In this document: one piece after another, positions 1,013-52,225 of the stretch
How positions within the stretch are numbered: position 1 is the first letter of the stretch
Layout: each line of letters opens with the position of its first letter
Assembly: GCA_022530585.1 (NCBI GenBank)
Contig: CP092821.1
Location: 6,222 to 70,221 of the forward strand
DNA length: 64,000 nt
Reading direction: 5' to 3'
DNA from: Candidatus Nealsonbacteria bacterium DGGOD1a
GTDB lineage: Bacteria > Patescibacteriota > Minisyncoccia > Minisyncoccales > UBA5738
Notes under the pieces: generated by a model
What the model was told of the DNA's origin: nothing
The model's database searches: none
Seen by the model: the letters and a program-made list of their open reading frames with translations, nothing else
Translations under genes and position numbers: made by a program

Positions 1013-2194
1013 ATGATTTACCCCAGAAAAATTTATCAAGAGTTGAAAGAACATCTTGCAAAAAAGGAAATCACTGTCTTGACGGGGATGCGGCGCACGG
1101 GAAAAACCACCTTGGTAAAACAGTTGTTAAAAGAAATTGATTCGGAAAATAAAATTTACTTTGACTTGCAGATTCTTGCCAATCAGGATGTTTTTTCGCC
1201 GCGAAACTTTGAGGCAATCGTGGAATCTTTAAAGCGGCGGGGGTTGGATTTTTCCCGCAAAACATATGTTTTTTTGGATGAAATTCAATTGGTGAAAGAA
1301 ATTCCCGGGATTTTAAAATATCTTTATGATAATTATGACATTAAATTCGTGGTTACCGGGTCAAGCTCTTATTATTTGAAAAATCTTTTTACCGAATCGC
1401 TGTCCGGGCGGAAAAAAATTTTTGAAATTTTTCCTTTGGATTTTGGCGAATTTTTGGTTTTCAAAAACATCAAAACCGCGCCGGGCGGCGATTGGCAAAA
1501 CAAAAAATTTGATTCGGCGGAATATAATTGGCTCAAGGCAAGCTATGAGGAATTTGTTGAATATGGCGGCTTTCCGCAAGCGGTTTTGGCGCAGTCAAGC
1601 GACGAAAAAAAAGATTTGCTGAATGAAATTTTAAGCTCTTATGCCAATATTGATGTGGCGGCATTGGCGGATTTTGCCGATCGAAGAAATGTTGCCAACC
1701 TAATCAAAATGCTGGCTGGGCGCGTTGGTACTCGGTTGGATTACGCGAAATTATCAAGATTGAGCGGTTTGGCGCGTCCCGTGATTAAAAATTATCTTGA
1801 TTTGTTTGAGGGCACTTATTTAATTTCAAGAATCCCTGTTTTTACCAACAACAAGGATCGTGAAATTGTTAAAGCGGAAAAACTCTATTTTTGCGACAGC
1901 GGGATGCTGGGGATTTTGGCGGATGTCGGCGGCGGAGCAAAGTTTGAAAACGCGGTTTTCGCGCAATTGCGCGCGCGGGGCGAAGTTAGATATTACGCGT
2001 TAAAAAATGGGCGGGAAATTGATTTTATTTTTGATGAAAAGTATGGGCTTGAGGTCAAAGAAACTCCGATAGAGTCGGATGAAAATAATTTGGCCGAAGT
2101 TGCCAAAACGGCCGGCGTCAAAAATTATCGGTTGATTGGCAAAAATTTGTCTCCCGCTTTTGATAATTATATTTGGGCGGGAACTATCCGCTAA
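1013..2194 (+). CDS. AAA+ ATPase, DUF4143-type (AAA_14 family)
   Basis: 393 aa with Walker A GMRRTGKTT and Walker B VFLDEIQ. Architecture matches the second copy at 28242-29495. Confidence 0.75.
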   Translation: MIYPRKIYQELKEHLAKKEITVLTGMRRTGKTTLVKQLLKEIDSENKIYFDLQILANQDVFSPRNFEAIVESLKRRGLDFSRKTYVFLDEIQLVKEIPGILKYLYDNYDIKFVVTGSSSYYLKNLFTESLSGRKKIFEIFPLDFGEFLVFKNIKTAPGGDWQNKKFDSAEYNWLKASYEEFVEYGGFPQAVLAQSSDEKKDLLNEILSSYANIDVAALADFADRRNVANLIKMLAGRVGTRLDYAKLSRLSGLARPVIKNYLDLFEGTYLISRIPVFTNNKDREIVKAEKLYFCDSGMLGILADVGGGAKFENAVFAQLRARGEVRYYALKNGREIDFIFDEKYGLEVKETPIESDENNLAEVAKTAGVKNYRLIGKNLSPAFDNYIWAGTIR

Positions 2195-3600: not shown

Positions 3601-4929
3601 TTATTTTTCGGCAACCCTTTTCACTTCGTCCAAGGTGGTGGTTCCTTGCACCACTTTGATCAGGCCGTCCTGATACATGGTCAGCATGCCTTTTTTTGTC
3701 GCCATTTCTTTTAAGCCGGGGATTGTGGGCGTTCCCAAAATGTAGTTTTGGATTTCATCGTCGATGATAAACGCTTCGTAAATGCCCATTCGGCCGCGAT
3801 AGCCGGTATTGCCGCAATGGGCGCAACCTTTCGCGCGCGGGATTTTCAAATTTGCGTCGATTAAGGGCATGGCCACTCCTTTTCGCGCCAATGCCGGCGC
3901 GGCATTGGCCAGCAGTTCGTTCAGTTCGGCCAGTTCTTCGGCCGTGGGCGTTTCCATCACGCCGCATTTTTCGCAAACATGGCGCACGAGCCGCTGGGCA
4001 ATGGCCATATTCAGCGCCGGGCCGATATTGAACGGTTTGGCGCCCAAGCTGATCAAGCGCGGAATCGTGCCGGCCGCGTCGTTGGTGTGCAAAGTGGAAA
4101 ATACCAAATGGCCGGTGAGAGCGGCTTGCAAAGCGATGTCGGCGGTTTCCAAATCGCGGATTTCGCCCACGAGAATCGCGTCCGGATCCTGGCGCACGAT
4201 CGCCCGCAGTCCGGAAATAAAGTCATAGCCCTTGTCGGGTTCGACCTGCGTCTGGGAAATTCCTTCCAGATGGTATTCGATCGGATCTTCGATCGTGACG
4301 ATTTTTATTTCCGGGTTTTGGATTTTTTTCAGAAAACCGTAAAGCGTGGTGGTTTTGCCCGATCCGGTGGGGCCGGTGACAATGACCATGCCGTTGGGGC
4401 GGGCGATTTGCTGTAAAAAAGTGTCGTAAAGGTCTTTGCGCAGACCGGCTTGTTCCAAACTGATCAGGCTTTTGGGATTTAAAATTCTCATTACGATCGA
4501 ATCGCCGTATTCGGTGGGCAATATCGAGGCTCTGATTTCCACCGAGTCGGCGCCGGCGAGAATCGAAAAACGGCCGTCTTGCGGCTTGTGGCTGATATTG
4601 AGCTTCATTTCCGAAAGCAATTTGATGCGGGAAACCAGGTTGTTGTAGGTTTTTTTATCAAACGACATCACATCCTGCAATACGCCGTCAAGGCGCACGC
4701 GCAATTTGGCGTCGCTTTCCTGGCCCTCAATGTGGATATCGGACGCGTCCAGCACGATGCCGCCGGCCAGGATCAATTCAATAATTTGAGTTACGGTTCC
4801 GGCCGCGTCGGCGATCCGTTTTTCAATTTCGGCGCGGAAAGGCGCCAAGCCGGTGAGGTTTTGTTTCAACGAATCGGTAAGTTCCTGGGGTATGGCGATT
4901 TTCTGGGTGATTTTTTGGGATACTTGCAT
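3601..4929 (-). CDS. pilB: Type IV pilus / type II secretion assembly ATPase (GspE/PilB family)
   Basis: 442 aa with Walker A GPTGSGKTTT, the Asp box and VGEIRD, and a C-terminal CxxC...CxxC cluster (CEKCG...CAHCG). Confidence 0.9.
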   Translation of the reverse strand: MQVSQKITQKIAIPQELTDSLKQNLTGLAPFRAEIEKRIADAAGTVTQIIELILAGGIVLDASDIHIEGQESDAKLRVRLDGVLQDVMSFDKKTYNNLVSRIKLLSEMKLNISHKPQDGRFSILAGADSVEIRASILPTEYGDSIVMRILNPKSLISLEQAGLRKDLYDTFLQQIARPNGMVIVTGPTGSGKTTTLYGFLKKIQNPEIKIVTIEDPIEYHLEGISQTQVEPDKGYDFISGLRAIVRQDPDAILVGEIRDLETADIALQAALTGHLVFSTLHTNDAAGTIPRLISLGAKPFNIGPALNMAIAQRLVRHVCEKCGVMETPTAEELAELNELLANAAPALARKGVAMPLIDANLKIPRAKGCAHCGNTGYRGRMGIYEAFIIDDEIQNYILGTPTIPGLKEMATKKGMLTMYQDGLIKVVQGTTTLDEVKRVAEK

Positions 4930-6785: not shown

Positions 6786-8018
6786 ATGGTTTTTTTCGGC
6801 ACAATCAATTATGCCGCGATGATCGCCAAATTGTTGCTTTTCTTGATCAACGCGGTGGGGGCGGAGTTGATGCTTTGGGCGTATGTTTCCAATCGCCATG
6901 CCCGGCCCGGCCGGTATTTTTTGCTGGGCGCGTTTTTTGTGCTTTTGTGGGTTGATTTGGATTCGGCCGGTATTTTGGCGCCGGTTTTTTTCTCTGAACG
7001 CCTGGCCGGTCCGGCCGCGGCGTGGGCGTTGAGAGGCGTTTACGCGCTATTGGCGGTTTTTTTCGCCGGGTTCTGCCTTTATTCCATGAATTTTCCGGAA
7101 AAGAACGCGCTGGATAAAAGCCGATGCGTTCGGGAAAATATCTTGATCGCGGTTTGGACATTTTTTTTCGTGATATCCTTCACTCCGCTTGTGGTTGCCG
7201 GCGTTGGATTCGATCCGTCTATGCCGCTGGCGGTTTGGGTCAAGGTCGGTCCGCTGTTCTGGGCGTATGCCATCGCCGCCGCCGCCGCGTTGGCGTTCTC
7301 GTTTTCCGAGCTTTCGCGCAACCGCCGTTTTGCCGATTCGCAAAACCGCCAAAAAGCGCGCTTGGCGGCGCTGGGCGCTGGCGGTTTCGGCATTTTTAAT
7401 TTGCTGTTCAATGTGATCGGGCCGTATTTTTCCGGCGGTTTCGAGTACGCGGGATTTTTTTCGCTTTTCGCGGATTACGCGGTCGTGATTCTTTTGGGGT
7501 ATCTCGCTTATCAAGCCGTACGCGAAAAATTGTTCGGGATAAAAGTTATTTTAGTGGAAATTTTTGTGGGTCTGATGGGCGTCAGTTTGGTGATAATGCC
7601 GTTTTTTGTGGGTCTTTTGTGGCAGCAGGCCTTGCTGGTGGTGCTTTCCATCTTGTTTTGCGTTTTTGGTTATTTGTCCGTGAAGAGTACGATCAAGGAA
7701 TACCGGGAAAAAGAGATTCTTGAACAAAAGGTATCCGAGAGGACGAAGGAGCTTGAGCTGGCCAAAATCGAACTTGAGGAAGCCAATTCGGTTTTGGAAG
7801 TGCGCGTCAAGGCGCGGACGATGGAATTGGAAAAACTGAACCGGACATTGGAAGAAAAAGTGGCCGGACGAACCAATGATTTGGAAGCCAAGATCAAAGC
7901 GCTTGAAGCGTTTCAGCGAATTACTGTCAGCCGCGAACTTAAGATGATAGAATTAAAAAAGGAAATCGAAAATTTGCGCCGGGCGGCGGAGGAAAATCAA
8001 GCCGCCGAACAAAAATGA
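6786..8018 (+). CDS. Polytopic membrane protein with C-terminal coiled coil (putative sensor module of the adjacent kinase)
   Basis: About 8 hydrophobic segments, then a coiled coil with LEEANSVLEVRVKARTMELEKL. The stop overlaps the next start (ATGA). Confidence 0.6.
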   Translation: MVFFGTINYAAMIAKLLLFLINAVGAELMLWAYVSNRHARPGRYFLLGAFFVLLWVDLDSAGILAPVFFSERLAGPAAAWALRGVYALLAVFFAGFCLYSMNFPEKNALDKSRCVRENILIAVWTFFFVISFTPLVVAGVGFDPSMPLAVWVKVGPLFWAYAIAAAAALAFSFSELSRNRRFADSQNRQKARLAALGAGGFGIFNLLFNVIGPYFSGGFEYAGFFSLFADYAVVILLGYLAYQAVREKLFGIKVILVEIFVGLMGVSLVIMPFFVGLLWQQALLVVLSILFCVFGYLSVKSTIKEYREKEILEQKVSERTKELELAKIELEEANSVLEVRVKARTMELEKLNRTLEEKVAGRTNDLEAKIKALEAFQRITVSRELKMIELKKEIENLRRAAEENQAAEQK

Positions 8019-11684: not shown

Positions 11685-11951
11685 TTACGCGCTTGTTTTC
11701 GCCAGCAGTTTGGCGATGCGGGATTTTTTTCTGGCCGCGGTGTTGGGTTTGATCGTGCCGGTTTTGGCGGCCTTGTCGAGAGCCTTAAAAATTGCCGGCA
11801 GATTTTTTTTGGCGTCTTCGATTTTTTTCGCGCCTGCCAAAACCCGCGTTTCTTTCAGTATGGTTTTTATTTTCTGTTTGCGAGCTTTGTTGGCGATCCG
11901 GCGTTTGGCGTTTTGCCGCAAAGCTTTTTTGGCGGATTTGATGATTGGCAT
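11685..11951 (-). CDS. rpsT: 30S ribosomal protein S20
   Basis: MPIIKSAKKALRQNAKRRIANKARK is the family N-terminus. Confidence 0.9.
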   Translation of the reverse strand: MPIIKSAKKALRQNAKRRIANKARKQKIKTILKETRVLAGAKKIEDAKKNLPAIFKALDKAAKTGTIKPNTAARKKSRIAKLLAKTSA

Positions 11952-12039
11952 AGGATTAAATCAAAATTAAAAAATGTCGTTGATTTTTAATGGCATCGGC
12001 GACAAATGAAATCATACCATAATTCCTGTTTTTTGCAAG

Positions 12040-12683: not shown

Positions 12684-15600
12684 ATGGAGAGAAAGCCAAA
12701 TAATCAAAAACCGCAAATTTTCACGAAAATTGCGTTCGCATTTTTGGTATTTTTGTGTTGCGCGGGCGCGTATCAAATCGTTTGGGCCGCGGTTGAATTT
12801 TATCCGTCCGATTCCTTGCGGGACCGCGCTTTTGGTTTTGCCGATTTTTTCCGGGATGCCGCGCAAATGGCGCCGCGCCAGTTTGTCCAAGGAATTGCCG
12901 CGGTTGAAAACGAGGTGTTTCCCGCCGCGCTGGAGTTTGTTTCGGACGGCGGACGCGATTTTGGCTTCGCTCTGGCGGACGCGAAATCAGCCGCGGTTGA
13001 TTTTGCTCAAAATTTCGCGGTAAAAACAGAAAATAACGCGACCGCCGTTGCCGTTGCCGCGGGCGGCCTTGTTGAAAATTCGGCCAAACAAACCGCGGGG
13101 TTGGGCGAAACCGCGGCGCGGTCTTTGGCGCGCGGCGTTCATTCGACCGGGGATAAAGTTTCGGTAATCGCCGGCAATGTCGGCGCGATCGCGGGCAAGT
13201 CGCTACGCGCCGGCGCGATTGCCGCCGGTTCGATTCTGGCGGATTTGCCCGCGGGAGCCAATCGCGCCGCCGATGGTATTTTTGGCGGCGTATCCGCGGC
13301 CTTAACCGGCGCCAATCGCGCGGTTCGCGGCGCGATCGATGAAACGGCGCAAAATATGTTTATTGCCGCGGATTCGATTTTGCGCGCGGCGCGGCCGGGC
13401 ACGGAGTTGGCCGCAAAAAGATCATCCCAAACCGCGGCGGCCGCGGGCGGCCTTGTTGAAAATTCGGCCAAACAAACCGCGGGGTTGGGCGAAACCGCGG
13501 CGCGGTCTTTGGCGCAGGCATCGCAGGCGGGGCAAGCGTCGTTGTCCTCATTTTTCGACGGAATCAAAAACCATATTCGCGACACGGCGCGCCGCTGGCT
13601 GGGAATAGAAGATTCTCCGGGCAATGATCAATTGTCGATGAATGGCCAAATTTCCAACGATCAAGAATTTTTGGAAGATGATCAGAGGGTTAGACCCTCT
13701 GAAAATCAGCCGGCGCCAATCGTCCAAAACATTTATCCGGAAAAAGAAATACAGACTAAGGAAGTGCAAACCAAGGAGATTCAAACCATTCATACCAAAG
13801 AAATACAAACTCAAGTCAATACCGTTGTCGCCGATGAGGGCACCAAAGCGCGAGTTAATCAAATTCTGCGCCAGATGGATTCGGACCGGCCCAATTATTC
13901 GCTGGGACAGAGTTACAATCCGCCGGATAATTTGGGCGCCAACACTTTGGATATCGGCGGCGGCAGTTTCACGGTGAACCGCCATGGCGCGATCACCGGC
14001 GGTTCGCTGGATATCGGGAGCGGCAATTTCACGGTTAGCGCCGGCGGCGACGCGGTCGTGCGCGGCAATTTCACGGTGTCCGGCAGCCAGACCTATTCGG
14101 GCGCGGCGGCTTTTTCGGCGACCACCACGGCCGCGGCATTATCCGCGATCCAAGGCGGATCGGGGGTTGCTTTGCAAGCCGACAACATCGCCATCAAGTC
14201 TTCCACCATTTCCACCAACGATAGCGACACGAATTTGCTCATCAATCCCAACGGCACGGGCGCGGTGCAATTCCACACCGCTGCCAACTATATCGATTCA
14301 ACCGGCAACCTGGTGTTGGACGGCGACATCACTTTGACGAGCGGCGGCACATTCTACACCACCGACAACGGCAATCTGGTTTTCGCGCCCAATGGCACCG
14401 GCAATCTGGTGGTGGGCGATACGGACAACGCCGCCAGCATCGTTCCGTTTGTTGATTCAACATTGGGCTATGATTTGGGAAGCTCGGCGCGAAGATGGTA
14501 TGACATCTACGCCGCGGGCAAACTGGATGTGGCGTCCACCACTTTGGAAAGCGGCCAGCTGTCGTTTGTCGATGCCGGCCGGATTACCACGGGCGCGAGC
14601 AAAGATTTAATTTTGCAAGCCGGCGCGGGCGGAAAAACTCAAATTACCGACGGCACGACCACGGTGGATATCGCCGATGGGACGCAGGCGCTGTACGCGG
14701 TGAACGGCGCCACGGCGGCCAAGCTGGCCGATGGGACATACGCGGTTGACGCGACCGGCGACATCCGGTTGTCCGGCGACATCACGGTTTCCGGCGGCCG
14801 GCTGAATTTCGGCGCCGGCGCGGAATCAATCGACAATGAAACCGCCAATCTTTTGAAACTCACCACCGGCGGCAACACCCGGGTGGTTCTTGGCGATGAC
14901 GCCGGAACCTACCAATTCCAGATCGCGGATTCGGGCGGCAATGTGGCGGCGTCGATCGATTCGGACGGCAAGGCGGTACTGGCCGGAATATCATCTTCGG
15001 GAAATATTTCTCCGGCAACCGATTTGGGCGCGAGTTTGGGCGACGCCACGCACCGCTTCAACGATATCTATGTCGCCAACATCAACACTTCCGGAATGTC
15101 AACTTCGGGGCAGGCGGTGTTCACTTACCAGCCGCTGTCGACCGATTTTGCCCAATCCAGCGTTTTGATAAATCCTTCCAGCGCCATTGCCGGCGCGCCG
15201 CTCTTGGGCGTTGGCGTTGCCGGAGTTCAGAAGTTTTTCGTTGATCGCGACGGCGCTGGCTATTTCGCCGGCAATGTGGGGATTGGGACGAGCAGTCCGG
15301 CGGGCGCGCTGCATGTGTCCGGCGGGCAGTGCGTTACCGGCGACACGCGCCTGCGGGCGCGGCGGCGGCGCAAAAAGAAAAACGAGCGGGGCGAATGGAT
15401 CGAGGAAGAATATTTTGAAGATGTCCGCATTGATCAAATCAAGCCCGGCGACGAAATTTTGACGCTGGACGAAAACACCGGCCGGCTGGCGGTTTCGCGC
15501 GTGAACGCCCTGATGGATATGGGCGTCAAGGAAATCTACAAACTGACCACGGCCACGGGCAAAACCATCCGCACCACCGCCAACCATCCTTATCTGGCGG

Positions 15601-18600
15601 TTGACGGGTTTAGCGATGAGCGCGTGGCGGTGTTTATCGACTCGGCGAACTTTGAGATGAGTTGCCAAGAATGCCGTTTGAAATTTGATTATCGGGACAT
15701 CATCAAATCATTTTTTGGACAAAAAGATAAAATTATTTTCCGTTATTACAAAGTTGATTTTGGCAGTTCCACTCTCAAACGGTTTTTCGACTATCTCAAT
15801 ATTCTGGGAATAAAAATAGTGAGCAAGCCGTTGAAAGTTATCAAACAAAAAGACATGGCGGATGTTCACAAGGCCAATTTTGATGTGGAAATCTCTTTTG
15901 ACGCAGCAATGAAAAAAGAAGAATACGATACATTGATTCTTTTTTCCGGGGATTCGGATTTTGCGTATATGGCAAGCGGATTGCAAAAAATCGGCAAGAA
16001 AATTGTCGCAATTTCAAATTGGAGGAGTATGTCCAAAGAATTGAGAGATACCGCCGATGTTTATCTAAATTTGAGAAAAATGCCGTTTGTGCGCCAAACG
16101 GCGGACGAAACAAAAAAGCCCCGAAGGGCCCTTGAAACCCGGCTTTCGCCGGCACTTCCGATTCTATCGCAGGCGCATCCGTTTGTCAAGGGCGCGGGCA
16201 AGTGGAAAAAAGTAAGCGATTTGCGCGAAGGCCAGATGATCGCGGTTGTTGGCGATAACGACAAACCGCAATATGAACGGATCGCCAAGATCGAGAAACT
16301 GCCGCCCGAACAGGTCTATGACATTGAAGTGGAAGGCACCCACAATTTCGTGGGCAACGGCATTGTCGCCCACAACACCTATCTGCAAGGCGCGGACCAG
16401 TTGAATACTTCCTTTGCCCTGCGCGTGCAAGATTCAACCGCCGCCGACAAATTCGTGGTCACCAACGCCGGCAATGTTGGTATCGGCACGACGGTACCGG
16501 CCGGTACGCTTCATGTGGAAGGGCGGTGCGTTACCGGCGATTCGGAGCTTGCCATTGTTGATGAATTTGAGGAAAATCAAATACGAAAAATACAAATCAA
16601 AGACATCCGGCCGGAGATGGAGGTTTTGTCGTTAAATGAAGATACCGGGCGATTGGAACCGCATATCATTAATAAATTATTGGATATGGGGGTTAAGCCG
16701 GTGTTTAAATTAACCACTCAAAGCGGCAAGACCATCCGCACCACCGGCAACCATCCGTATCTTGTCAGAAAGCCGGAACATAAAATATCGGAATCGGAAA
16801 TTAATTCAAGCGTTAAAAGCGTCAACCCGGAATGTCTGACCGAAGAATATGAATTTGCCAATGCCAAGATTCTGTGGGAAGAAAACAAAAAACCCGCGTT
16901 GGCGGATTCTTTGGCGAATTCTGGCTTGACGCAAAATTTAGGATTGTCACCCAATTCAATTATAGGCGGCAATAAAAAATTTGTCAAGGGTCAAACAGGG
17001 AATAGCTCAAGAATCGTGGAGGTAGGGGGAATTGAACCCCCGAACTCTTGGGTGACAATCCAGAATTCGCGCCAAGCTACCCCCACGACAAGTGAATTTT
17101 ATCACAAAGAAAATGATGGCGCAAAATGGACTAAATTGATTTATTTGCATCCCGGAGATTATATCGCGGTTGCCTCTTTGGATTCCCGGCTTTCGGATTT
17201 TGGGCAAGTGTTATGGGATAAAATCAAGTTTATTGAATATGTTGGCGAGGAGCAAGTCTATGACATTGAGGTGGAAGGCACTCACAATTTCGTGGGCAAC
17301 GGCATTGTCGCCCACAACACCTATTTGATGGGCGATACCGGCATCGGGACGACCACGCCCGGGGCGAAGCTGGATGTGCGGGGAGGGATCGCGGCGGGAA
17401 CCAACGGCACGGAGTTTGCGGTATCTGGCGGCGGCAACATCACCGCCGGAACCTACAACGGACTGACTCTTGCTTCCCAGCTTACGGGTTTTACCATCAA
17501 CGGGGGAACCGCCGCCAAAACTTTGATCCTGAACGATAATCTTGACGCCGCCGGAGTTAACAATCATATTGCCGATACCGCCAACCCTCACAATGTCACT
17601 AAATCTCAAATTGGTTTGGGCGATGTGGAAAACACCGCGCTTTCCACTTGGCCGGGCACATTGAATATCACCACTTTGGGGACGATTGGCACGGGCACAT
17701 GGAACGGCAGTGTTATTTCGCCGGTCTATGGCGGCACGGGCGTTGCCAACAACGCCGCCAACACTCTCGCTTTCACCGGCAACTATTCTTTGGGATTGAC
17801 TTTGACAAGCAATACCTCGCTCACTCTGCCGGCAAGCGGCACTCTGGCAACTTTGGACGGCACCGAAACTTTAACCAACAAAACCTTAACTAGCCCCACG
17901 ATCACCACGCCTACGATTGCCGATCTTATCGGCGCCAAAATCCGCCCGGCAAGCGATTCAACCACCGCTCTGCAATTTACCAAAGCGGACGGCGCGACCA
18001 ATGTGATGAACATCGACACCACCAATGGGCGCGTCGGGATTGGGACGACTGCCCCGGGGGCGAAATTACAAATTGGTGACGGGACTGCGACATCGCAATA
18101 TATTTACGAAACTGGCTCTGTAAGCCAACTATACATTGGTCAGAATACCGGTACTGCTCATTTTGGCTTGACTGATGCGGCAAAAATTATACAGGCGACG
18201 GCATATCCTCTAGCTATTGGTGCGACTGGGGCACAGCCTTTAGTTTTTGGTACCAGTAATACGGAGCGTGTGCGTATCGATAGTGCCGGCAATGTCGGGA
18301 TTGGGACGACGAGTCCCTCGGCAAAGTTGCACGTGCTTGGCACCGACAGCTTGCCGACAACCACGGTTGCCAATTTTTCCGGTTCCACAGGAACGGGTTT
18401 GAAGGTTATGGGCGATGGCGAAATAGTAATTGGGGCGCCAAGTGCTTTAAGTGGTTTGTTGAATATCAAGCAAAAAGTTGATAGTAACGCCGGTGGTTTA
18501 TGGTTGGTAAATACAGGTGAAACCTATAGTCTTAGATGGTATATTGACGCTAACGGTGTTGGCAGGTTTGATAATAAACTGGATGGTAGTGGCAATATCT

Positions 18601-21600
18601 CGTTGAATGGAAGAGGGAGTGGCAACGTCGGGATCGGGACGACGAGTCCGGCGGAGCTGTTGGATGTGAATGGGCGGTTGCGGTTGGCGCAGACCACCGC
18701 GCCGGAGACGATTGCCGACAAGCTCTACAATGTTTCGGGCAATTTGGTTTGGAACGGCGTTAATCTCACCGCGGGCGGCGCCCTGCCTTCGGGCGCGGAA
18801 GGCCAACTGCTCTACAACAACGCCGGCGCGTGGACCGCGTTCTCCGGCTTGCATTGGGATGATACCAACTCGCGCCTGGGCATCGGCACGACCAGCCCGG
18901 ATTATTCTTTTACTGTTGAAGGTACTGGGCAGGCATTTGGAAGACATAACGATGCTATTACTGGGCCATTTATGATTTATCGCAAAGCAAGAGGCACGAC
19001 TTCGGCACCTGCCATTGTGCAAAGTGGCGATGAAATAGGAAAGATAATTTTTAGAGGCTACGATGGAATTGATTACTCTTCCACCGGAGCTACCATTATA
19101 TCCTATGTAGATGGTACCCCTGGAGGTGACGATATGCCCGGAAATCTTCAATTTATGACTACTCCCGATGGTTCAAACAGTGTTTTGTCAAGAATGACAA
19201 TTAAAAGTGACGGCAACATCGGCATCGGCACGACGAGTCCGGCGGAGTTGTTGGATGTGAACGGGCGGTTGCGCTTGGCGCAGACCACCGCGCCGGAAAC
19301 GATTGCCGACAAGCTCTACAATGTTTCGGGCAATTTGGTTTGGAACGGCGTCAATCTCACCGCGGGCGGCGCCCTGCCGTCGGGCGCGGAAGGCCAACTG
19401 CTCTACAACAACGCCGGCGCGTGGACCGCGTTTGACGGAATGTATTGGGATGACGCCAACAGCCGGCTGGGGATTGGGACGACGAGTCCAGATAGAAATT
19501 TGCAGGTTGTTGGTGGGATCAGAGCTAATTATATTTATACTGACACTGCAGCAACTGCAACAAATCCGTCAGTGAGATTGGCTAGTGGTTACGGATTTTT
19601 TTCGCCGGGGTTAAACTCTGTTGCAGTTTCTGCATCTTCCACTGAAGTGATGAGGATTGATGCTAGCGGCAATGTGGGGATTGGCACGACCAGTCCGGCG
19701 GGACGGTTAGATGTGCTTGGACTTTCTACGGCATATCCGTCTGCGACTGTTACGGCAGGGGATTTGGTTGTAGACACTACCAACAAGACTGTTTATGTTG
19801 GCAAACAAAGCAACGCGAGTGGTGATAATTCAATTTTTGCTGTCAGGGACAGAATAGGAATAAACAAGCTGTATGTTTCTTCGCAAGCGGATATTGCATC
19901 ATACTTTAGCTCGGGCAATGTGGGCATCGGGACGACGGCACCCCTATCAAAATTGAGTGTTGGTGACGCGGGGTCTGTTAATTATAATATGTCAGTGTCA
20001 TCCGGTGCCAATGGGGCAATCTATGCAAATTCTTCCAGTGGCTATGGTGTTTATGGCACAACCTTGTCCGGAGTTGGTATTTATGGGTATTCTGCTGGAA
20101 GTGGAACAGGGGGTTTATTCAGTTCAGCCAGTGGCTATGGATTGATAGTGAGTACCGGCAATGTCGGGATTGGAACAGCGACGCCGTTGTATTCATTGGA
20201 TGTCAGAACAACAAATAGTGTTACGAGTGGCCAGCATCCTATAGCTAACTTTTATAATTCTAGCGGCGGAGCGGGCGTTTTGGTTGGTTGGAACGCCGAT
20301 GGTTCAGCGGTTAACGCGGGTTTCATCCGTTCTGTTGGTAGCTTGCCTTTTTATTTAGGTACGACTAATTCTGCGCAGGCAGTAACTATTTTAGATAACG
20401 GCAATGTCGGCATCGGGACGACGAGTCCGGGGAGCAAATTGACAGTGAGAGGGGCGACTGCTTATACGAGTACCAGCGATGCGGCAACTTTATTGAAGTT
20501 GGAGTCGTCTTTGGACCAATACCCGACTTTTCCGGGAGCGACTGTTGGTTTACAGTTAAATCCAAGAGGAACCGTAGGGGAAAATATGGGCAACAGGATT
20601 GTGTCGGAATACAGTAGTGATAGTTACAGGGGGTATGATTTGCATTTCCAAGTTACGACTGCTCCAGGGGTGTGGGCAAACTTGATGAAGATTGATGGGA
20701 TAACAGGCAACGTCGGCATCGGGACGACGGCGCCAGAGACAGCTTTGGACGTTGTTGGTGCAGTGCGTTCCAACACTTATTTGCAAGGTAATGGCGCAAT
20801 TGTTTATGGGACGCTTGGGTTATATTATGGAGCAAGCGAGTTGGGCAGATATTCGTTTGGAGCTACTACGCCGTTAGGCGCAATGCCGTTATCTTTGGTT
20901 TCGGGGGATGGCGCGACTTACACTGATGGTTATATAAATTTTCAGACAGCGGGAAGTGAGCGGGTACGTATTGATAGTGCCGGCAATGTGGGCATCGGGA
21001 CGACGAGTCCGGAAGTGAAATTAGATGTTGTCGGGGTTGCAAGGGTAAGCGATTATCTTGCGGCGCCGGGAATTAGGGCATCAACGGCTGATTTTTATTT
21101 CGAGAATTACAATGGCGCTTCTTGGATCAAGAATATGTATATACAAGGAAATACGGGCAACGTCGGCATCGGCACGACGAGTCCGGCGGAGTTGCTGGAT
21201 GTGAACGGGCGGTTGCGGTTGGCGCAAACCACCGCGCCGGAAACGATTGCCGACAAGCTCTACAATGTTTCGGGCAATTTGGTTTGGAACGGCGTCAATC
21301 TCACCGCGGGCGGCGCCCTGCCTTTGGGCGCGGAAGGCCAACTGCTCTACAACAACGCCGGCGCGTGGACCGCGTTTTCCGGATTATACTGGGATGATAC
21401 CAGCAGCCGGCTAGGGATCGGCACGACGAGCCCGGGGCAGAAACTTGATGTAATTGGAAATGTCGCAGTGTCAGGGAGTGTGCTTACAACTTCTATTGGT
21501 TCGGGAAGTTCTTCTTCTTATACTTCGTTATATGGTGGCGCTACTTATACGGGGGGAGAAATTGATGTATATGGTGGAACACACGCTACGCTTCCCGGGA

Positions 21601-28241: not shown

Positions 28242-29495
28242 ATGATTCCAATAACCATTTTAGAGGAAATAACCAGAGATCAAGAGGAAAAATTCCGGCA
28301 AAGAGACAGGGGGATTACGCGGGATATTGATTTTGAAAAATATTTAAAGACGGCGCAAATAGTTGTTATTTCGGGCACGCGGCGCTGCGGAAAGTCAACG
28401 CTTTTGCGGCAATTTTATGATAATTTCGGCAGTTGCCATTATCTTAATTTTGACGATGAACGGCTTTTGGATTTTGAAGTCGGCGATTTCCAAAATTTGA
28501 TGCTGGCGTTTGGCAAAATCAACGATTCAAAAACGATTTTGCTGGACGAAATTCAAAACATCGGCAGTTGGGAGAGGTTCGCGCGCCGAATTTATGACGA
28601 GGGGTATAAGATATTCATCACCGGATCAAACGCCAAATTATTGAGTTCGGAATTGGCAACCCATTTAACCGGACGCTATTTCGGGTTGGAGCTTTTCCCG
28701 TTTTCTTTCAATGAATTTTTGAATTTTAAAAAAATTGATTGGAAAATTTTGAATTCGCGAAAAAGAATTGAGATTTTATCGGCATTCGACGCTTATTCGC
28801 AAAACGGCGGATTTCCCGAATTTTTGAAAAGCCAAGACATGGAATATCTCAAAAAAATATATGAAGATATTTTATATAAAGATATTATCGCGCGGTTTGG
28901 GATTCGCGAGGTGAAATCGTTTCGCGAGCTTGCCAATTGCGTGTTTTCAAATTTTACTCAAGAAACAAGCTATAACGGATTAAAAAATACTTTGGGGTTC
29001 AAAAGCTTGGTGACGGTAAAAAATTATGTCCATTATTTGCAGGAAAGCTATTTGGCGTTTGAGGTTTTTAAATACGATTTTTCTTTGAAAAAACAATATA
29101 TCTCCAATAAAAAAATTTTTGTCATTGACAACGGCTTGCGCAATTCCGTGGCGTTTGGATTTTCCGAAGACCGCGGCCGTTTGCTGGAGAATTTGGCATT
29201 TTTGGAATTAAAGAGGCGCGGCAAGGAAATTTATTATTTCAAAGATAAAAAAGAATGTGATTTTTTGGTCAAGAAAAAAAATAAAATTATCGGCGCCATC
29301 CAGGTTGCGTGGCGTATGGACAAGAACAATCAGGCAAGGGAATTGGAGGGGCTCTGGGGCGCGATGGAAAAATTCGGCCTCAAAGAAGGGATAATTTTGA
29401 CTAAAGATCAGGAAGATGAAAATAATGAGCGGGGCAAGGTTAAAATTATTCCGGTTTGGAAATGGCTGTTAGCCGCGGAATGGAAAAATTTTTAA
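28242..29495 (+). CDS. AAA+ ATPase, DUF4143-type (second copy)
   Basis: 417 aa with Walker A GTRRCGKST and Walker B ILLDEIQ. Same architecture as 1013-2194. Confidence 0.75.
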   Translation: MIPITILEEITRDQEEKFRQRDRGITRDIDFEKYLKTAQIVVISGTRRCGKSTLLRQFYDNFGSCHYLNFDDERLLDFEVGDFQNLMLAFGKINDSKTILLDEIQNIGSWERFARRIYDEGYKIFITGSNAKLLSSELATHLTGRYFGLELFPFSFNEFLNFKKIDWKILNSRKRIEILSAFDAYSQNGGFPEFLKSQDMEYLKKIYEDILYKDIIARFGIREVKSFRELANCVFSNFTQETSYNGLKNTLGFKSLVTVKNYVHYLQESYLAFEVFKYDFSLKKQYISNKKIFVIDNGLRNSVAFGFSEDRGRLLENLAFLELKRRGKEIYYFKDKKECDFLVKKKNKIIGAIQVAWRMDKNNQARELEGLWGAMEKFGLKEGIILTKDQEDENNERGKVKIIPVWKWLLAAEWKNF

Positions 29496-48736: not shown

Positions 48737-51700
48737 ATGGAACAAAATTTTAATCGGCGGGAGGAAAGAATCGTTAAATTTTGGCGGGAGTTTAAAATTT
48801 TTGAAAAATCCGTGGCGCGCGCACCCAAGAAACGCCGGGATTTTGTGTTTTACGAAGGGCCGCCCACGGCCAACGCGCGGCCGGGGATACATCATTTGGA
48901 AACGCGCGTATTCAAGGATATGGTCTGCCGCTACAAGACCATGGCGGGGTTTCGGGTTGAGCGCCGCGCCGGATGGGACACGCACGGGTTGCCGGTGGAA
49001 TTGCAGATCGAGAAGAAATTAAATCTTCACAACAAAAAAGAGATTGAACAATACGGCATCAAGGAATTCAACAAACAATGCCGCGATTCGGTTTTTGAGC
49101 AGATCAAGGAATGGCGCGCGCTGACCGAGCGCGTCGGTTATTGGCTGGATATGGATAACGCCTATATCACTTACGATTCCAAATATATGGAGTCGGTGTG
49201 GTTTATTTTGAAAACCGCTTGGGAAAAGAAATTGATGTTCCAGGATTACAAAGTGGTGCCGTATTGCCCGCGTTGCGGCACGGCGCTTTCCAGCCACGAA
49301 GTGGCGCAAGGTTATAAAAAAGTCAAAGAACTTTCCATATTCGTGAAATTCCGGGTGGTCAATCCCGAAATCAAAGACACTTCGCTTTTGGTTTGGACCA
49401 CCACGCCCTGGACATTGCCGGCCAATGTGGCCGCGGCGGTCAATCCCAAAATGGATTATGTGAAAGCCAAGCCGAAGGATGCCGCCGCCGGATTTTTGAT
49501 TTTGGCGAAAAGCCGGTTTGGAGTTTTGGGCGAAAATTATGAAATCGTCGAGGAAATGAAGGGCGATAAATTGGCGGGCTTGCGCTATCAGGCGGTTTAT
49601 CCGGTGCCCGACGAATCGAAAAAAACGATTTACAAAGTGATCGCCGCGAATTTCGTTTCTTTGGAGGACGGTTCGGGAATCGTGCACATCGCGCCGGCGT
49701 TCGGCGCCGAGGATATGGAAGCGATCCGTTCGCAGAACAAAAAATTGCGCGCCGAAAATTTGCCGGAGTTTCCGGTGGTGATGAATGTGGGCGAAGACGG
49801 CGCGTTTACTTTTGACAGCGCCAAGTGGGCGGGGATGTTTGTCAAAGACGCCGATTCGCCGATCATCAAAGATTTGGAAGAACGCGGATTGCTGTTTAAA
49901 TCCGAACTTTACGAGCATGATTATCCGTTTTGCTGGCGCTGTAAAACGCCGTTGTTGTATTACGCCAAAAAGAGCTGGTTTATCGAAATGACCAGGCTGC
50001 GGGACGATTTGATCAAAAACAACCAAACGATTAACTGGGTGCCGGGCTATCTGAAGGACGGGCGTTTCGGAGAATGGCTGCGCGAAGTCAAGGATTGGGC
50101 GATTTCCCGCGACCGTTATTGGGGCACGCCTCTGCCGGCATGGAAGTGCGAATGCGGCCATACTCAAATAATGGGTTCGATTCGCGATCTGCTGGACTGC
50201 CGTTATTCAAACAATCGATATATTATTTTTCGGCACGGCCATTCGGCGCGGCAGGTAAAAAAGATTTCCAGTTCGTGGCCCGAGCCCGAACCGCTGCCGC
50301 TCACCGAACAGGGGAAAAAGAAAGTCGGCGCCAACGCCAAGAAATTGGCCAAGGGGAAAATCGATCTGATCATTTCTTCGGATTTGCTGCGGGCGAAAGA
50401 AACCGCTCAAATAATTTCCCAAGCCACGGGCGCCAAAATCGTTTATGACAAGCGGTTGCGCGAACTCAATGTGGGCGCGTTGAACGGCCAGGACCCGAAA
50501 CTGTTTTGGGATTTCATCAATGCCGAGCCCGATTGTTTGAATGCCAAACCGCGAAGAGGAGAAAGTTTGATCGCGCTGCGCCGCCGGGTTTATGAATTTA
50601 TTTCCGATATCGACAAGAAATATGAAAACAAAACCATTGTTTTCGTGTCGCACGAAATGCCCCTGACAATTTTGGAATGGACGCTGGAAGGGATGGAACT
50701 GGGAACAATTGTCAACGGCCGCCATTCCGGAAAAATTAAAAAAATCGACACCGGCGCTTTTCGGCCGATCGATTATAAAGAATTGCCCTTTAACGATCGG
50801 ATGGAACTTGATTTGCATCGGCCTTATATCGATCAAGTGACGCCGATCTGTCCGGAATGCAACGCCAAAATGCGGCGCACGCCCGAAGTGCTTGACTGCT
50901 GGCTTGATTCGGGTTCAATGCCTTTCGCGCAGATAGGCTGGCCGCGGGGCAAAAATCAATCAAAAAATAAACCGCCAAAATTATTCCCCGCGGATTTTAT
51001 TTCCGAAGCGATTGATCAGACGCGCGGCTGGTTTTACACTTTGCTCTCGGTATCCGCGGTTTTGGGATTCGGCGCGTCCTATAAAAATGTGGTTTCGCTG
51101 GGGCATGTTTTGGATGAAAAGGGCGAAAAGATGTCCAAATCCAAAGGCAATGTGATCGATCCGCGGGAAATGATCGAGAAATATTGCGCCGACGCGGTGC
51201 GCTGGTATTTCTACACGGTTAACGATCCGGGCGATCCAAAACTTTACAACGAAAAAGATTTGGATCAGGCGGTTAAAAAGTTTTTGCTGACATTCTGGAA
51301 TTGCCATATTTTCCTCCAGACTTACGCGCCCGGGATCAAAGCGCCCAAAACCGTCGCCCCGGCGCATGTGCTGGACCGGTGGATTGTTTCACGGCTGAAT
51401 GAAACAATAATGCTTGTCGGCGGCCTTCTTGAGAAATACGATATCGCTCCCGCGGCGCGGGCGCTTGAATCGTTTGCGATCAATGATCTGTCGTTGTGGT
51501 ATGTGAGGCGGTCGCGCCGGCGTTTGCAGCAGCCGGTAAATCCGGCCGAGTTGAAACAGGCGGCCAAGATATTCGCCCATGTGCTGGCGAATTTGGCCAA
51601 AATCACCGCGCCGTTTACGCCATTTTTGAGCGAGGAAATCCATCAGAAATTAAGCGGCAATGATTTTGCCAAACCCAAATCGGTGCATTTGGAAGAATGG

Positions 51701-52225
51701 CCCCAAGTTTCGGAAAAATTAATCGACAAAAACCTTGGCGTACAAATGGCGCGGGTGCGCGAGTTGGTGGCCGCGGCTTTGGCCGAGCGCGCCAAGCGGG
51801 GCGTCAAGGTGCGCCAGCCGCTGGCAAAAATGATCGTTGCCGGAAAACCGCTGGATGAAGAATTGATCGGTTTGCTGGCGGGCGAAGTGAATGTGAAAGC
51901 AATCGAATTCAATCCGGAATCAAAGACGCCGATGGAATTCGACTGGACGATCACCCCCGCGCTGGAAGAGGAGGGCAATGTGCGGGAAACAATGCGCCAG
52001 ATACAGGAATTGCGTAAAACCGCCAAGTTTACGCCCGGCGACAAGATCGTCATTTATGTCCAAGCGGAGGGAGAATTGAAGCTCGCGATCGAGAAAAATC
52101 AATCAATGATGGCCAAGGAAACCAAAGCCGTCGGGATCGAATTCGGAAAGCCGGCCAAGCCGGCCGCGCAAATCGAAGCCAAGGTCGGCGGCCGGCCGCT
52201 ATGGATCGGCATTAAAAAATGTTAA
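48737..52225 (+). CDS. ileS: Isoleucine--tRNA ligase with an inserted histidine-phosphatase domain
   Basis: PPTANARPGIHH (HIGH region), WAISRDRYWGTPLP and KMSKSKGN. A phosphoglycerate-mutase-like insert spans roughly 50195-50803. Confidence 0.9.
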   Translation: MEQNFNRREERIVKFWREFKIFEKSVARAPKKRRDFVFYEGPPTANARPGIHHLETRVFKDMVCRYKTMAGFRVERRAGWDTHGLPVELQIEKKLNLHNKKEIEQYGIKEFNKQCRDSVFEQIKEWRALTERVGYWLDMDNAYITYDSKYMESVWFILKTAWEKKLMFQDYKVVPYCPRCGTALSSHEVAQGYKKVKELSIFVKFRVVNPEIKDTSLLVWTTTPWTLPANVAAAVNPKMDYVKAKPKDAAAGFLILAKSRFGVLGENYEIVEEMKGDKLAGLRYQAVYPVPDESKKTIYKVIAANFVSLEDGSGIVHIAPAFGAEDMEAIRSQNKKLRAENLPEFPVVMNVGEDGAFTFDSAKWAGMFVKDADSPIIKDLEERGLLFKSELYEHDYPFCWRCKTPLLYYAKKSWFIEMTRLRDDLIKNNQTINWVPGYLKDGRFGEWLREVKDWAISRDRYWGTPLPAWKCECGHTQIMGSIRDLLDCRYSNNRYIIFRHGHSARQVKKISSSWPEPEPLPLTEQGKKKVGANAKKLAKGKIDLIISSDLLRAKETAQIISQATGAKIVYDKRLRELNVGALNGQDPKLFWDFINAEPDCLNAKPRRGESLIALRRRVYEFISDIDKKYENKTIVFVSHEMPLTILEWTLEGMELGTIVNGRHSGKIKKIDTGAFRPIDYKELPFNDRMELDLHRPYIDQVTPICPECNAKMRRTPEVLDCWLDSGSMPFAQIGWPRGKNQSKNKPPKLFPADFISEAIDQTRGWFYTLLSVSAVLGFGASYKNVVSLGHVLDEKGEKMSKSKGNVIDPREMIEKYCADAVRWYFYTVNDPGDPKLYNEKDLDQAVKKFLLTFWNCHIFLQTYAPGIKAPKTVAPAHVLDRWIVSRLNETIMLVGGLLEKYDIAPAARALESFAINDLSLWYVRRSRRRLQQPVNPAELKQAAKIFAHVLANLAKITAPFTPFLSEEIHQKLSGNDFAKPKSVHLEEWPQVSEKLIDKNLGVQMARVRELVAAALAERAKRGVKVRQPLAKMIVAGKPLDEELIGLLAGEVNVKAIEFNPESKTPMEFDWTITPALEEEGNVRETMRQIQELRKTAKFTPGDKIVIYVQAEGELKLAIEKNQSMMAKETKAVGIEFGKPAKPAAQIEAKVGGRPLWIGIKKC
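50195..50803 (+). other. Histidine phosphatase (PGAM-like) domain embedded in IleRS
   Basis: IIFRHGHS (RHG catalytic motif), LTEQG, IISSDLLRAKETAQII, RGESL and VFVSHEMPL (second His). Confidence 0.75.

Follow-up and report, generated by a model that had tools for sequence, protein, structure and literature searches.

Predicted class-1 inteins, a NYN nuclease domain and putative antisense genes in a retroelement-diversified surface protein of Candidatus Nealsonbacteria

Two probable inteins in a repetitive surface protein and their relatives

A giant gene for a repetitive surface protein (12684..25310, plus strand, ~12.6 kb) lies in the window, by which we mean the whole 64,000-nucleotide stretch of Candidatus Nealsonbacteria bacterium DGGOD1a analysed here (contig CP092821.1, positions 6,222 to 70,221). 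The gene is a single open frame of 4208 codons. It encodes 15 GNVGIGT-type repeat motifs and, as predicted from the sequence, an N-terminal hydrophobic anchor or signal segment, and it ends in the variable region of a diversity-generating retroelement (DGR). Two insertions that are very probably class-1 inteins with the HINT fold are found in it: intein 1 (15330..16376, plus strand) spans 349 amino acids (aa 883-1231) and intein 2 (16527..17318, plus strand) spans 264 (aa 1282-1545). Intein 1 starts with CVTGDT and carries block B as TTANHPYL (TTANH at intein aa 82-86), and intein 2 starts with CVTGDS and carries it as TTGNHPYL (TTGNH at aa 72-76). Both end in VYDIEVEGTHNFVGNGIVAHN (...GIVAHN) and are followed by Thr+1, at 16377-16379 and 17319-17321, respectively. 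The catalytic set of Cys1, TxxH, penultimate His, terminal Asn and Thr+1 is intact in both, and intein 1 additionally has a basic beta-hairpin, RLRARRRRKKK.

The inteins interrupt paralogous positions of the repeat of the host protein. The N-extein repeat unit of intein 1 (15270..15329, plus strand) reads GNVGIGTSSPAGALHVSGGQ, with Gln as residue -1, and the two contexts are GNVGIGTSSPAGALHVSGGQ/intein 1/TYLQG and GNVGIGTTVPAGTLHVEGR/intein 2/TYLMG. They are separated by an extein of 50 aa (TYLQGADQLNTSFALRVQDSTAADKFVVTNAGNVGIGTTVPAGTLHVEGR; 16377..16526, plus strand). An uninterrupted paralogous unit is found at aa 2675 (20706..20801, plus strand), where it reads GNVGIGTTAPETALDVVGAVRSNTYLQG / ...ALDVVGAVRSNTYLQG / GNVGIGTTAPETALDVVGAVRSN-TYLQG, and is a candidate for an empty site or an old scar. 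An initial annotation, made from the letters of the sequence, had described two canonical class-1 inteins with these starts, block B motifs and C-terminus, in these repeat contexts and with such an uninterrupted unit elsewhere in the gene. All of this is borne out by the residues and by the profile cut-offs that both inteins pass.

The Pfam Intein_splicing profile (gathering threshold (GA) 35.8) matches intein 1 with 75 bits (E 7e-21) and intein 2 with 81 bits (E 1e-22). The NCBIfam models TIGR01443 (intein_Cterm, 38-39 bits, cut-off 15.6) and TIGR01445 (intein_Nterm, 26-33 bits, cut-off 24.5) match both, and the best full-length NCBIfam match is the intein-containing DnaB model. Agreement of this order lies well outside what chance would give. 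By sequence, the closest solved relatives are the Npu and Ssp DnaB mini-inteins (4o1r and 1mi8; phmmer E ~1e-10), which are splicing-competent. The AlphaFold2 model of intein 1 has a predicted local distance difference test score (pLDDT) of 88, and aligns in Foldseek with NpuDnaB and SspDnaB across both halves (target template modelling score (TMt) 0.86). The fold search covered intein 1, and the HINT assignment of intein 2 rests on the core of its model (pLDDT ~95), from which an insert at aa ~85-198 projects without a fold (pLDDT 38-53).

Searches with intein 1 and intein 2 matched 178 and 97 protein clusters, respectively, nearly all labelled Patescibacteria or DPANN and most of them fragments of GNVGIGT-repeat 'tail fibre domain' proteins. 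In a scan of one genome per GTDB species, at least 483 stretches encode relatives (483 confirmed among 500 listed), and the family is found mostly in the candidate phyla radiation (CPR)/Patescibacteria. From 79 retained loci, 81 complete stop-free inteins were delimited, and these are the basis of all counts out of 81 given here. Two or three inteins in one gene are common among the 79 loci. The junction consensus, from 91 N- and 94 C-junctions, is ...GNVGIGTTxPxQKLHVEGQ / C...HN / TY(I/L)SGNVGIGTT..., and the insertion site motif LHVxG(Q/R)/TY(I/L)xG thus adjoins a GNVGIGTT repeat. Thr+1 is present in 93/94 C-junctions of homologues. Cys1, HN and Thr+1 are found in all 81 delimited inteins and the TxxH motif of block B in 78 of them; residue -1 is Gln in 49/81.

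A comparison of empty and occupied sites had been proposed in the initial annotation. In a search with spliced exteins, intein-free homologues keep the motif uninterrupted: KLHVSGN-TYISGNVGIGT in P0244, EVAGGQ-TYLHS (twice) in P0216, KLHVTGR-TYLNAG in P0302, and QKLHVEG(T/L)-T(F/Y)LNGNVGIGT in Bacteroidota-like proteins. The same homologues rule out that a flanking doublet (LHVEGQ..TYISGNVGIGTT) travels with the intein, since they carry the doublet without interruption; that idea had arisen because a clean empty doublet was seen in 0/320 motifs of the fetched loci. The inteins thus occupy the most conserved motif of the host, as classical inteins do, and Thr+1 is native to that motif. The host had also been called unusual. 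This holds against the published landscape of inteins, with its bias towards replisome proteins (PMC4760082), but the host is not unique: GNVGIGTT-repeat tail-fibre-like surface proteins are where this large, mostly CPR family of inteins normally resides.

PT-HINT (PF07591) matches isolated intein 1 with 29.4 bits (cut-off 27.7), which counts against an intein assignment, and has no match on intein 2 in Pfam. Together with the BIL2 structures at ranks 23-32 of the fold matches, and with bacterial intein-like (BIL) and pretoxin-HINT domains being a known category in variable secreted bacterial proteins, this would suit non-splicing HINT/BIL autoprocessing modules that cleave or attach the surface protein with no ligation of exteins. 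We consider such modules very improbable. The Intein_splicing scores lie far above those of PT-HINT or Hint, TIGR01443 and TIGR01445 both pass, and in the fold search splicing DnaB and RecA inteins (TMt 0.82-0.86) come out ahead of BIL2 (0.65-0.70). Cleavage alone needs no Thr+1, whereas Thr+1 accompanies Cys1 and HN in 93/94 and 81/81 junctions, and the extein halves are contiguous in intein-free homologues, as ligation would restore them. The profile check that the initial annotation had put forward therefore comes down on the side of inteins, and both insertions are filed as class-1 inteins because of the profiles, the likeness to DnaB inteins, the HINT models, the full residue set and the far lower PT-HINT and Hint scores.

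After translation, each intein would excise itself by an N-S acyl shift at Cys1, transesterification to Thr+1 and Asn cyclisation, rejoining ...GGQ-TYLQG... and ...EGR-TYLMG... (predicted junction peptides ...HVSGGQTYLQGADQLN... and ...LHVEGRTYLMGDTG...). It is highly probable, judging from residues, profiles and models, that both inteins are spliced out and the repeat motif is thereby restored; two splicing events would then be needed for the mature protein, predicted at 3595 aa. Maturation would fail if the inteins were dead relics or the giant frame were pseudogene-like. Intein 2 lacks a nuclease and its long insert is unstructured, many homologues lie on short, fragmented contigs, and at least one relative (P0062, in locus L004) is clearly decayed. 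However, no stop interrupts the 4208 codons, even where they cross the two inteins and AT-rich antisense promoters; neither intein has lost a catalytic residue, the DGR that targets the host has a clean adenine-specific pattern, and 81 relatives are stop-free from Cys1 to HN. We consider decay very improbable.

The NYN domain and the putative antisense genes

The initial annotation recognised the two inteins but overlooked a nuclease domain, antisense promoters, small RNAs (sRNAs) and a tRNA-like gene within them. In intein 1, a NYN (LabA-like, PIN-fold) nuclease domain (15621..16070, plus strand; intein aa 98-247) is located where a homing endonuclease would be expected. PF01936 (NYN) matches with 81.4 bits (GA 24.2), and the acidic motifs FID(104), FDVE(185) and SGDSDF(206-211) are intact in an alignment with 2qip. 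That structure is matched by sequence with E 3.6e-11 and by Foldseek with TMt 0.77, and the MARF1 NYN domain is matched as well. No LAGLIDADG or HNH endonuclease domain is found by Pfam in intein 1 or intein 2, and the insert of intein 2 has no recognisable Pfam domain. NYN is present in 15 of the 81 family inteins. An Arg/Lys-rich beta-hairpin after block A is found in 15/15 of these versus 20/66 of the others, which suggests that NYN and the basic hairpin form a nucleic-acid-binding unit.

Another sense-coded insert, of ~200 aa, recurs at the endonuclease position in P0020, P0026, P0028, P0031, P0034, P0035 and P0086. It has the motif FE(I/V)DQSxRIE .. IDxEYxGYE .. IGKxSPAH and no Pfam match, and may be another uncharacterised intein-borne enzyme. 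A DUF3800-like identity of the insert in P0011 was considered and is not supported by Pfam.

On the opposite strand, each of the two inteins has a predicted sigma-70-type promoter. That of intein 1 (16161..16189, minus strand; TTGACA-17-TAGAAT) agrees with the consensus at 11/12 positions and is overlaid by the sense peptide ..ILSQAHPFVK, and that of intein 2 (16959..16987, minus strand; TTGACA-17-TATAAT) agrees at 12/12 and is overlaid by IIGGNKKFVK. The sense peptide 'FVKG' is conserved and is the reverse complement of the -35 box. Behind the promoter of intein 1 lies a putative short antisense RNA (16104..16155, minus strand) with a GNRA hairpin, CCGGC-GAAA-GCCGG, and a terminator of a UUCG hairpin and U-run (stem 16133->16114). 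It is followed by a second antisense terminator-like hairpin (16072..16102, minus strand; GCCGTTTG..CAAACGGC plus T-run), immediately 3' of the segment that codes for NYN. The corresponding sRNA of intein 2 (~70 nt; 16880..16952, minus strand) ends in the terminator CCGC-CAAC-GCGG plus U-run.

Upstream of this promoter, a 68-nt gene for a tRNA-like RNA is predicted (17017..17084, minus strand; sense-strand translation VEVGGIEPPNSWVTIQNSRQATP), with an extended -10 box, TGATAAAAT (17096..17104, minus strand), 11 nt upstream of it. The RNA has a 7-bp acceptor stem, GGGGGUA/UACCUCC, with G3:U70 and discriminator A73, no D arm, a 9-bp central stem with a bulged A, and a T arm, GGGGG-UUCAAUU-CCCCC; CCA is not encoded. 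The folding z-score of the window copy is -4.4. The Rfam tmRNA model (RF00023) matches it with both ends aligned (32 bits, E 1.4e-10, GA 47) and the mascRNA model gives a sub-threshold match at 17084->17017. No Rfam family reaches its gathering score in this region of the window, and ARAGORN does not call the window copy. The copy in locus L002 is called a tRNA by ARAGORN and Rfam, and it alone reaches the GA of the tRNA model (RF00005; 30 versus 29). The tRNA-like RNA has no tag reading frame, mRNA-like domain or pseudoknots and cannot be placed with tRNA or tmRNA. A decoding tRNA-Asp, as ARAGORN called the L002 copy, is unlikely, given the missing D arm, the 9-bp central stem and an 'anticodon' that is variable and changes in step with the sRNA.

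Four other inteins with the peptide ..VGGIEPP..ATP.. carry the element with compensatory changes, as seen in a hand alignment of five copies. A covariance model (R1) built from these five was searched against the window and 83 loci. It gave 36 full-length matches in ~30 loci, all antisense to the intein and none at a true tRNA, and no match in phage loci with other inteins, 221 kb in total. In the alignment of all 36 copies, pairing holds in 96% of cells, and double changes (184 cells) occur in 18/21 pairs. Covariation is scored at 0.70, versus 0.20 for shuffles and 0.09-0.17 for slid controls; this alignment was fitted to the model, which counts against it, and the five-copy hand alignment gave the same picture. 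G1:C72 is invariant and G3:U70 is kept in 32/35 distinct copies. The extended -10 box (TGnTAnnnT) lies exactly 11 nt upstream in most copies, and 22/23 of the elements share one phase with the sense frame.

The downstream order is likewise shared: the tRNA-like RNA is followed by a spacer, which in many copies holds TTATCCACA, then by a strong promoter and a ~70-nt sRNA. At its 5' end, the sRNA is reverse-complementary to the central arm of the tRNA-like RNA, and the complementarity covaries locus by locus, with a median complementary run of 16 nt in own pairs versus 10 nt in cross-locus pairs. In the window, it involves both the 5' GGGUGACAAUCC and an internal CCAGAAUUCGC of the sRNA. We conclude that the element is a structured RNA gene with an acceptor identity of tRNA-Ala/tmRNA type, paired with a cognate sRNA, with expression of both predicted. 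The two RNAs probably form a regulatory or maintenance pair; a regulatory or attenuator pair, a maintenance module, and an alanyl-tRNA synthetase (AlaRS) or RNase P mimic are possible functions. Their inverted repeat was also considered as the ends of a miniature inverted-repeat transposable element or as an invertible promoter switch. Both are rejected because the acceptor stem spans the repeat boundary, G3:U70 is strand-specific and the helices covary as RNA.

Further arrangements of the element were seen in relatives. L004 (10001-11503, P0062) and L005 hold a decayed copy, in which the tRNA-like module stands before a partial intein. This partial intein is without Cys1 and terminal HN and is fused in frame to a bAvd-like (23S rRNA intervening sequence protein (IVP)) domain, and a second tRNA-like match is found at 11897-11964. 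In L007, a 686-kb contig of Blackburnbacteria, four copies (326-393, 4121-4188, 4587-4655 and 7419-7486) are clustered in 8.4 kb, and a single intein contains two of them. Certain genes thus hold the module many times over. The 9-mer TTATCCACA, the DnaA-box consensus, or a one-off variant of it, is found 7-20 nt upstream of the antisense -35 box in L004b, L019, L026, L029, L031, L055, L065, L081 and others, where the sense peptide is '..VDN..'. The window copies of this DnaA-box-like 9-mer are degenerate (TTTTCCACT in intein 1).

In other relatives, the same promoters precede antisense open reading frames (ORFs) for DUF433 proteins (PF04255, E 1e-21 to 4e-26), DUF2683-like proteins and two-helix membrane proteins of 63-76 aa. 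All 21 antisense ORFs lie wholly within the intein, in phase 0 or 2 to the sense frame and never in phase 1. The sense translation of these inteins matches only a split Intein_splicing profile. In the model of intein 1, the sole disordered stretch (aa 260-284, nt 16107-16181) lies exactly over the antisense unit; the sense peptides over these antisense elements are predicted to be disordered and are conserved only where the DNA motif dictates.

Promoters, terminators and the tRNA-like fold could also be by-products of coding constraint or composition rather than expressed genes. The promoters were found by a consensus scan, which alone is no evidence of function, so that they stand as predictions, and the short class-B RNAs of the NYN inteins have little beyond promoter and terminator. 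However, the scan finds an antisense promoter in 68/81 inteins versus 14/81 (generally weaker) on the sense strand, an asymmetry not expected of by-products. Nor are disordered peptides that follow the DNA motif, helices that stay paired through the 184 double changes, the strand-specific G:U pair, the fixed 11-nt spacing of the extended -10 box, or complete DUF433 (E 1e-26) and small membrane-protein genes behind the same promoters. An origin as by-products is, on this evidence, improbable. By their profiles and placement, the antisense ORFs appear to be real genes and the intein linker a stop-free 'shadow' of genes in the opposite orientation. That the linker serves as a carrier of antisense cargo genes, with the sense shadow peptide removed by protein splicing, seems to us somewhat more probable than the contrary.

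Mosaic history and proposed spread

The initial annotation had noted that the last 63 nt of the two inteins differ at 2 positions, and had read this as recent intragenic spread. The differences are confirmed, and both are synonymous. Near-identity of DNA is confined to block A, block B and the last ~78 nt of the two inteins; the remainder is ~50-60% identical or unalignable, and their cargo is unrelated (NYN versus the tRNA-like module). Thus, near-identical ends (61/63 nt, 96.8%) remain from the earlier reading, and recent spread from one copy to the other does not follow from them, because the cores are divergent and same-gene pairs elsewhere behave alike: these are 87-100% identical in the last 63 nt and do not share cores. 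For cross-genome pairs with the same C-terminal peptide, the median identity over the 63 nt is 82.5%.

Inteins of other assemblies (L084, L046) match the ends of intein 1 with 80-100% identity. Against L084, its 3' end is 100% identical, its N-terminal part 78-90% and its NYN middle 30-57%. The first ~105 nt of its C-extein are 87-90% identical to those of L046, which has a different, 789-aa host protein, and this identity falls to random exactly at the next GNVGIGTT. By these comparisons, the pieces of intein 1 appear to have different histories.

One of the two inteins might be a recent intragenic duplicate of the other, whose centre was later lost or gained, as the 3' ends, the near-identical block A and B DNA and the same repeat context would allow. 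We regard this as unlikely. The DNA between the conserved blocks is too divergent, the cargo is unrelated, the segments of intein 1 differ in their identity to L084, and the shared ends of same-gene pairs elsewhere point to repeated homogenisation by gene conversion. Recombination or gene conversion between different inteins, with the repeat flanks as homology, appears to fit better than recent duplication.

In such a scheme, the family would spread among repeat units and genes via the GNVGIGTT-coding flanks. The NYN domain and the Arg/Lys-rich hairpin may act as the initiating nuclease, and intein 2 would be a nuclease-less passenger. We give roughly even chances to this combination of homology-driven gene conversion through repeat flanks, possibly NYN-started, with a non-autonomous intein 2. 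The mosaic distribution, the shared flanking tract and the basic hairpin in all NYN inteins (15/15) lend indirect support to a putative site-specific cleavage of the intein-less allele. Phage contigs hold few relatives of the family and no tRNA-like copies, and therefore a phage vector is not indicated.

We favour, with moderate confidence, a composite mobile element, in which the intein is the vehicle for promoter-bearing antisense cargo, some members have NYN in place of a homing endonuclease, and the repeat flanks aid the spread. The cargo would comprise the tRNA-like RNA with its complementary sRNA, DUF433 proteins and small membrane proteins. It would be tolerated within a coding gene by keeping the shadow stop-free, translated as a disordered linker and spliced out. 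Several points weigh against the account given here as a whole, inteins and cargo alike. Splicing, nuclease activity and antisense transcription are each deduced from sequence. NYN and other PIN-like domains are best known as RNases, and therefore a role in DNA homing is a guess. No consensus structure was obtained by RNAalifold from 20 sRNAs. The host gene has a single empty-like unit and no occupied/empty polymorphism was observed, which leaves current mobility a conjecture. Additionally, the N-terminal hydrophobic segment suggests an exported host protein, in which case splicing of two folded inteins would have to precede or accompany export.

Each component has a counterpart among known systems. 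DnaB class-1 mini-inteins (Npu 4o1r, Ssp 1mi8) share blocks A, B, F and G, the chemistry of Cys1...HN plus nucleophile, and the HINT fold. Unlike those, the inteins described here reside in a repetitive DGR-diversified surface protein instead of a replisome enzyme, use Thr+1, have an Arg/Lys-rich hairpin after block A, and bear cargo in the linker. Bifunctional inteins with LAGLIDADG or HNH domains (PI-PfuI 1dq3, VMA) likewise hold a nuclease between block B and block F, which is carried or missing sporadically among close relatives; here, however, the fold is the NYN/LabA PIN fold (PF01936) and DNA cleavage is conjectural. BIL and pretoxin-HINT domains are likewise autoprocessing modules of the HINT fold that occur within hypervariable or surface proteins of bacteria, but the present family has the full set of splicing residues, universal Thr+1, intein-level scores and a motif that is contiguous in intein-free homologues.

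The tRNA-like domain of tmRNA (transfer-messenger RNA) and the acceptor minihelix of tRNA-Ala likewise have G1:C72, G2:C71, G3:U70, A73, a canonical T arm and no D stem. The intein-borne RNA differs from them: an mRNA-like domain and pseudoknots are missing, its 9-bp central stem carries a variable loop, CCA is not encoded, and it is nested antisense in an intein and paired with a complementary sRNA gene. Group I and II introns with ORFs for homing endonucleases, maturases or other proteins are also self-removing elements that act as gene vehicles. Removal here would take place at the protein level, with cargo that is read through, on the opposite strand and under a stop-free sense frame. Other DGR systems have the same C-terminal CLec/FGE variable region, Avd, template region, reverse transcriptase and adenine-specific changes, but the target here is predicted to need protein splicing for its maturation.

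In the usual description, inteins parasitise conserved enzymes of replication, repair or nucleotide metabolism and carry LAGLIDADG or HNH endonucleases on the sense strand. Singly, inteins, NYN domains, tRNA-like RNAs and DGR targets are already known. In the literature searched, which covered CPR, tRNA-like, antisense promoter and DGR topics, we found no description of this intein family or of its antisense-cargo architecture, no paper joining 'intein' with 'NYN domain', and no report of DGR targets that need protein splicing. Undescribed there are this type of host, an endonuclease slot filled by a PIN-fold nuclease, and promoter-driven antisense genes, with a tRNA-like RNA among them, within an open-frame intein, and there is a substantial chance that the cargo architecture deserves a category of its own.

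If these predictions hold, maturation of a major surface protein of these CPR symbionts would depend on protein splicing, NYN would, as a true mobility nuclease, be a new class of homing enzyme, and antisense genes nested in intein DNA would be a new form of gene-within-gene embedding in streamlined genomes. Small inteins with Thr+1 and a compact RNA resembling tRNA-Ala could also be drawn from this family. The records of homologous proteins are for the most part 'partial', on contigs just 1-3 kb long, as would be expected if multi-copy inteins with homogenised ends broke up metagenome assemblies of giant repeat genes; the family would account for their fragmentation in this way. A Yanofskybacteria contig (JACPNK010000005.1, locus L001) encodes a classical GyrA intein with a LAGLIDADG_3 endonuclease at 16085-19948. 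The same genome carries a family intein with the tRNA-like module, so that two intein types coexist in it.

The diversity-generating retroelement and neighbouring genes

The C-terminus of the host protein is an FGE-sulfatase/CLec domain by profile search and coincides with the DGR variable region (VR; 25193..25320, plus strand) at the 3' end of the gene. Downstream follow the accessory gene bAvd (25456..25806, plus strand), also found by profile search, the template region (TR; 25922..26049, plus strand), delimited by VR/TR comparison, and a reverse transcriptase (RT) ORF (26670..27389, plus strand; RVT_1). All 16 VR/TR mismatches are at TR adenines. The host gene C-terminus is thus a verified DGR target, with an RT, Avd and an adenine-only TR/VR pair, and the initial annotation was right to call the gene DGR-diversified. 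The RT ORF has just 239 aa and its RVT_1 match begins at profile position 61; this may reflect a true start further upstream, or a truncation or frameshift in the gene.

A 52-nt palindromic hairpin (..CAGAGGGTCTAACCCTCTGATCAGAGGGTTAGACCCTCTG..) occurs twice as a perfect direct repeat, at 25370-25421 and 26236-26287, with one copy just past the VR and the other past the TR. It may be a DGR hairpin or cruciform element, duplicated here. Within the host protein, three near-identical units of ~120 aa (GNVGIGTTSPAELLDVNGRLRLAQTTAPETIADKLYNVSGNLVWNGVNLTAGGALP..LLYNNAGAWTAF) are present at aa 1980, 2177 and 2825 (nt ~18621-18990, ~19212-19580 and ~21156-21520). They suggest recent intragenic duplication or conversion that is independent of the inteins.

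The neighbours of the host gene are cellular genes, with holA, a histidine kinase, IF-2, FtsH, isoleucyl-tRNA synthetase (IleRS), prolyl-tRNA synthetase (ProRS) and seven tRNAs, and the order tRNA-Val/tRNA-Ile/FtsH is syntenic with a Yanofskybacteria contig. Paralogous AAA_14/DUF4143 ATPase genes lie at window positions 1013-2194 and 28242-29495, one of them directly downstream of the DGR cassette. At 48737-52225, an IleRS-like class-I aminoacyl-tRNA synthetase of 1162 aa has a His_Phos_1 domain (aa 496-658) between two tRNA-synt_1 stretches, which is an unusual insertion.

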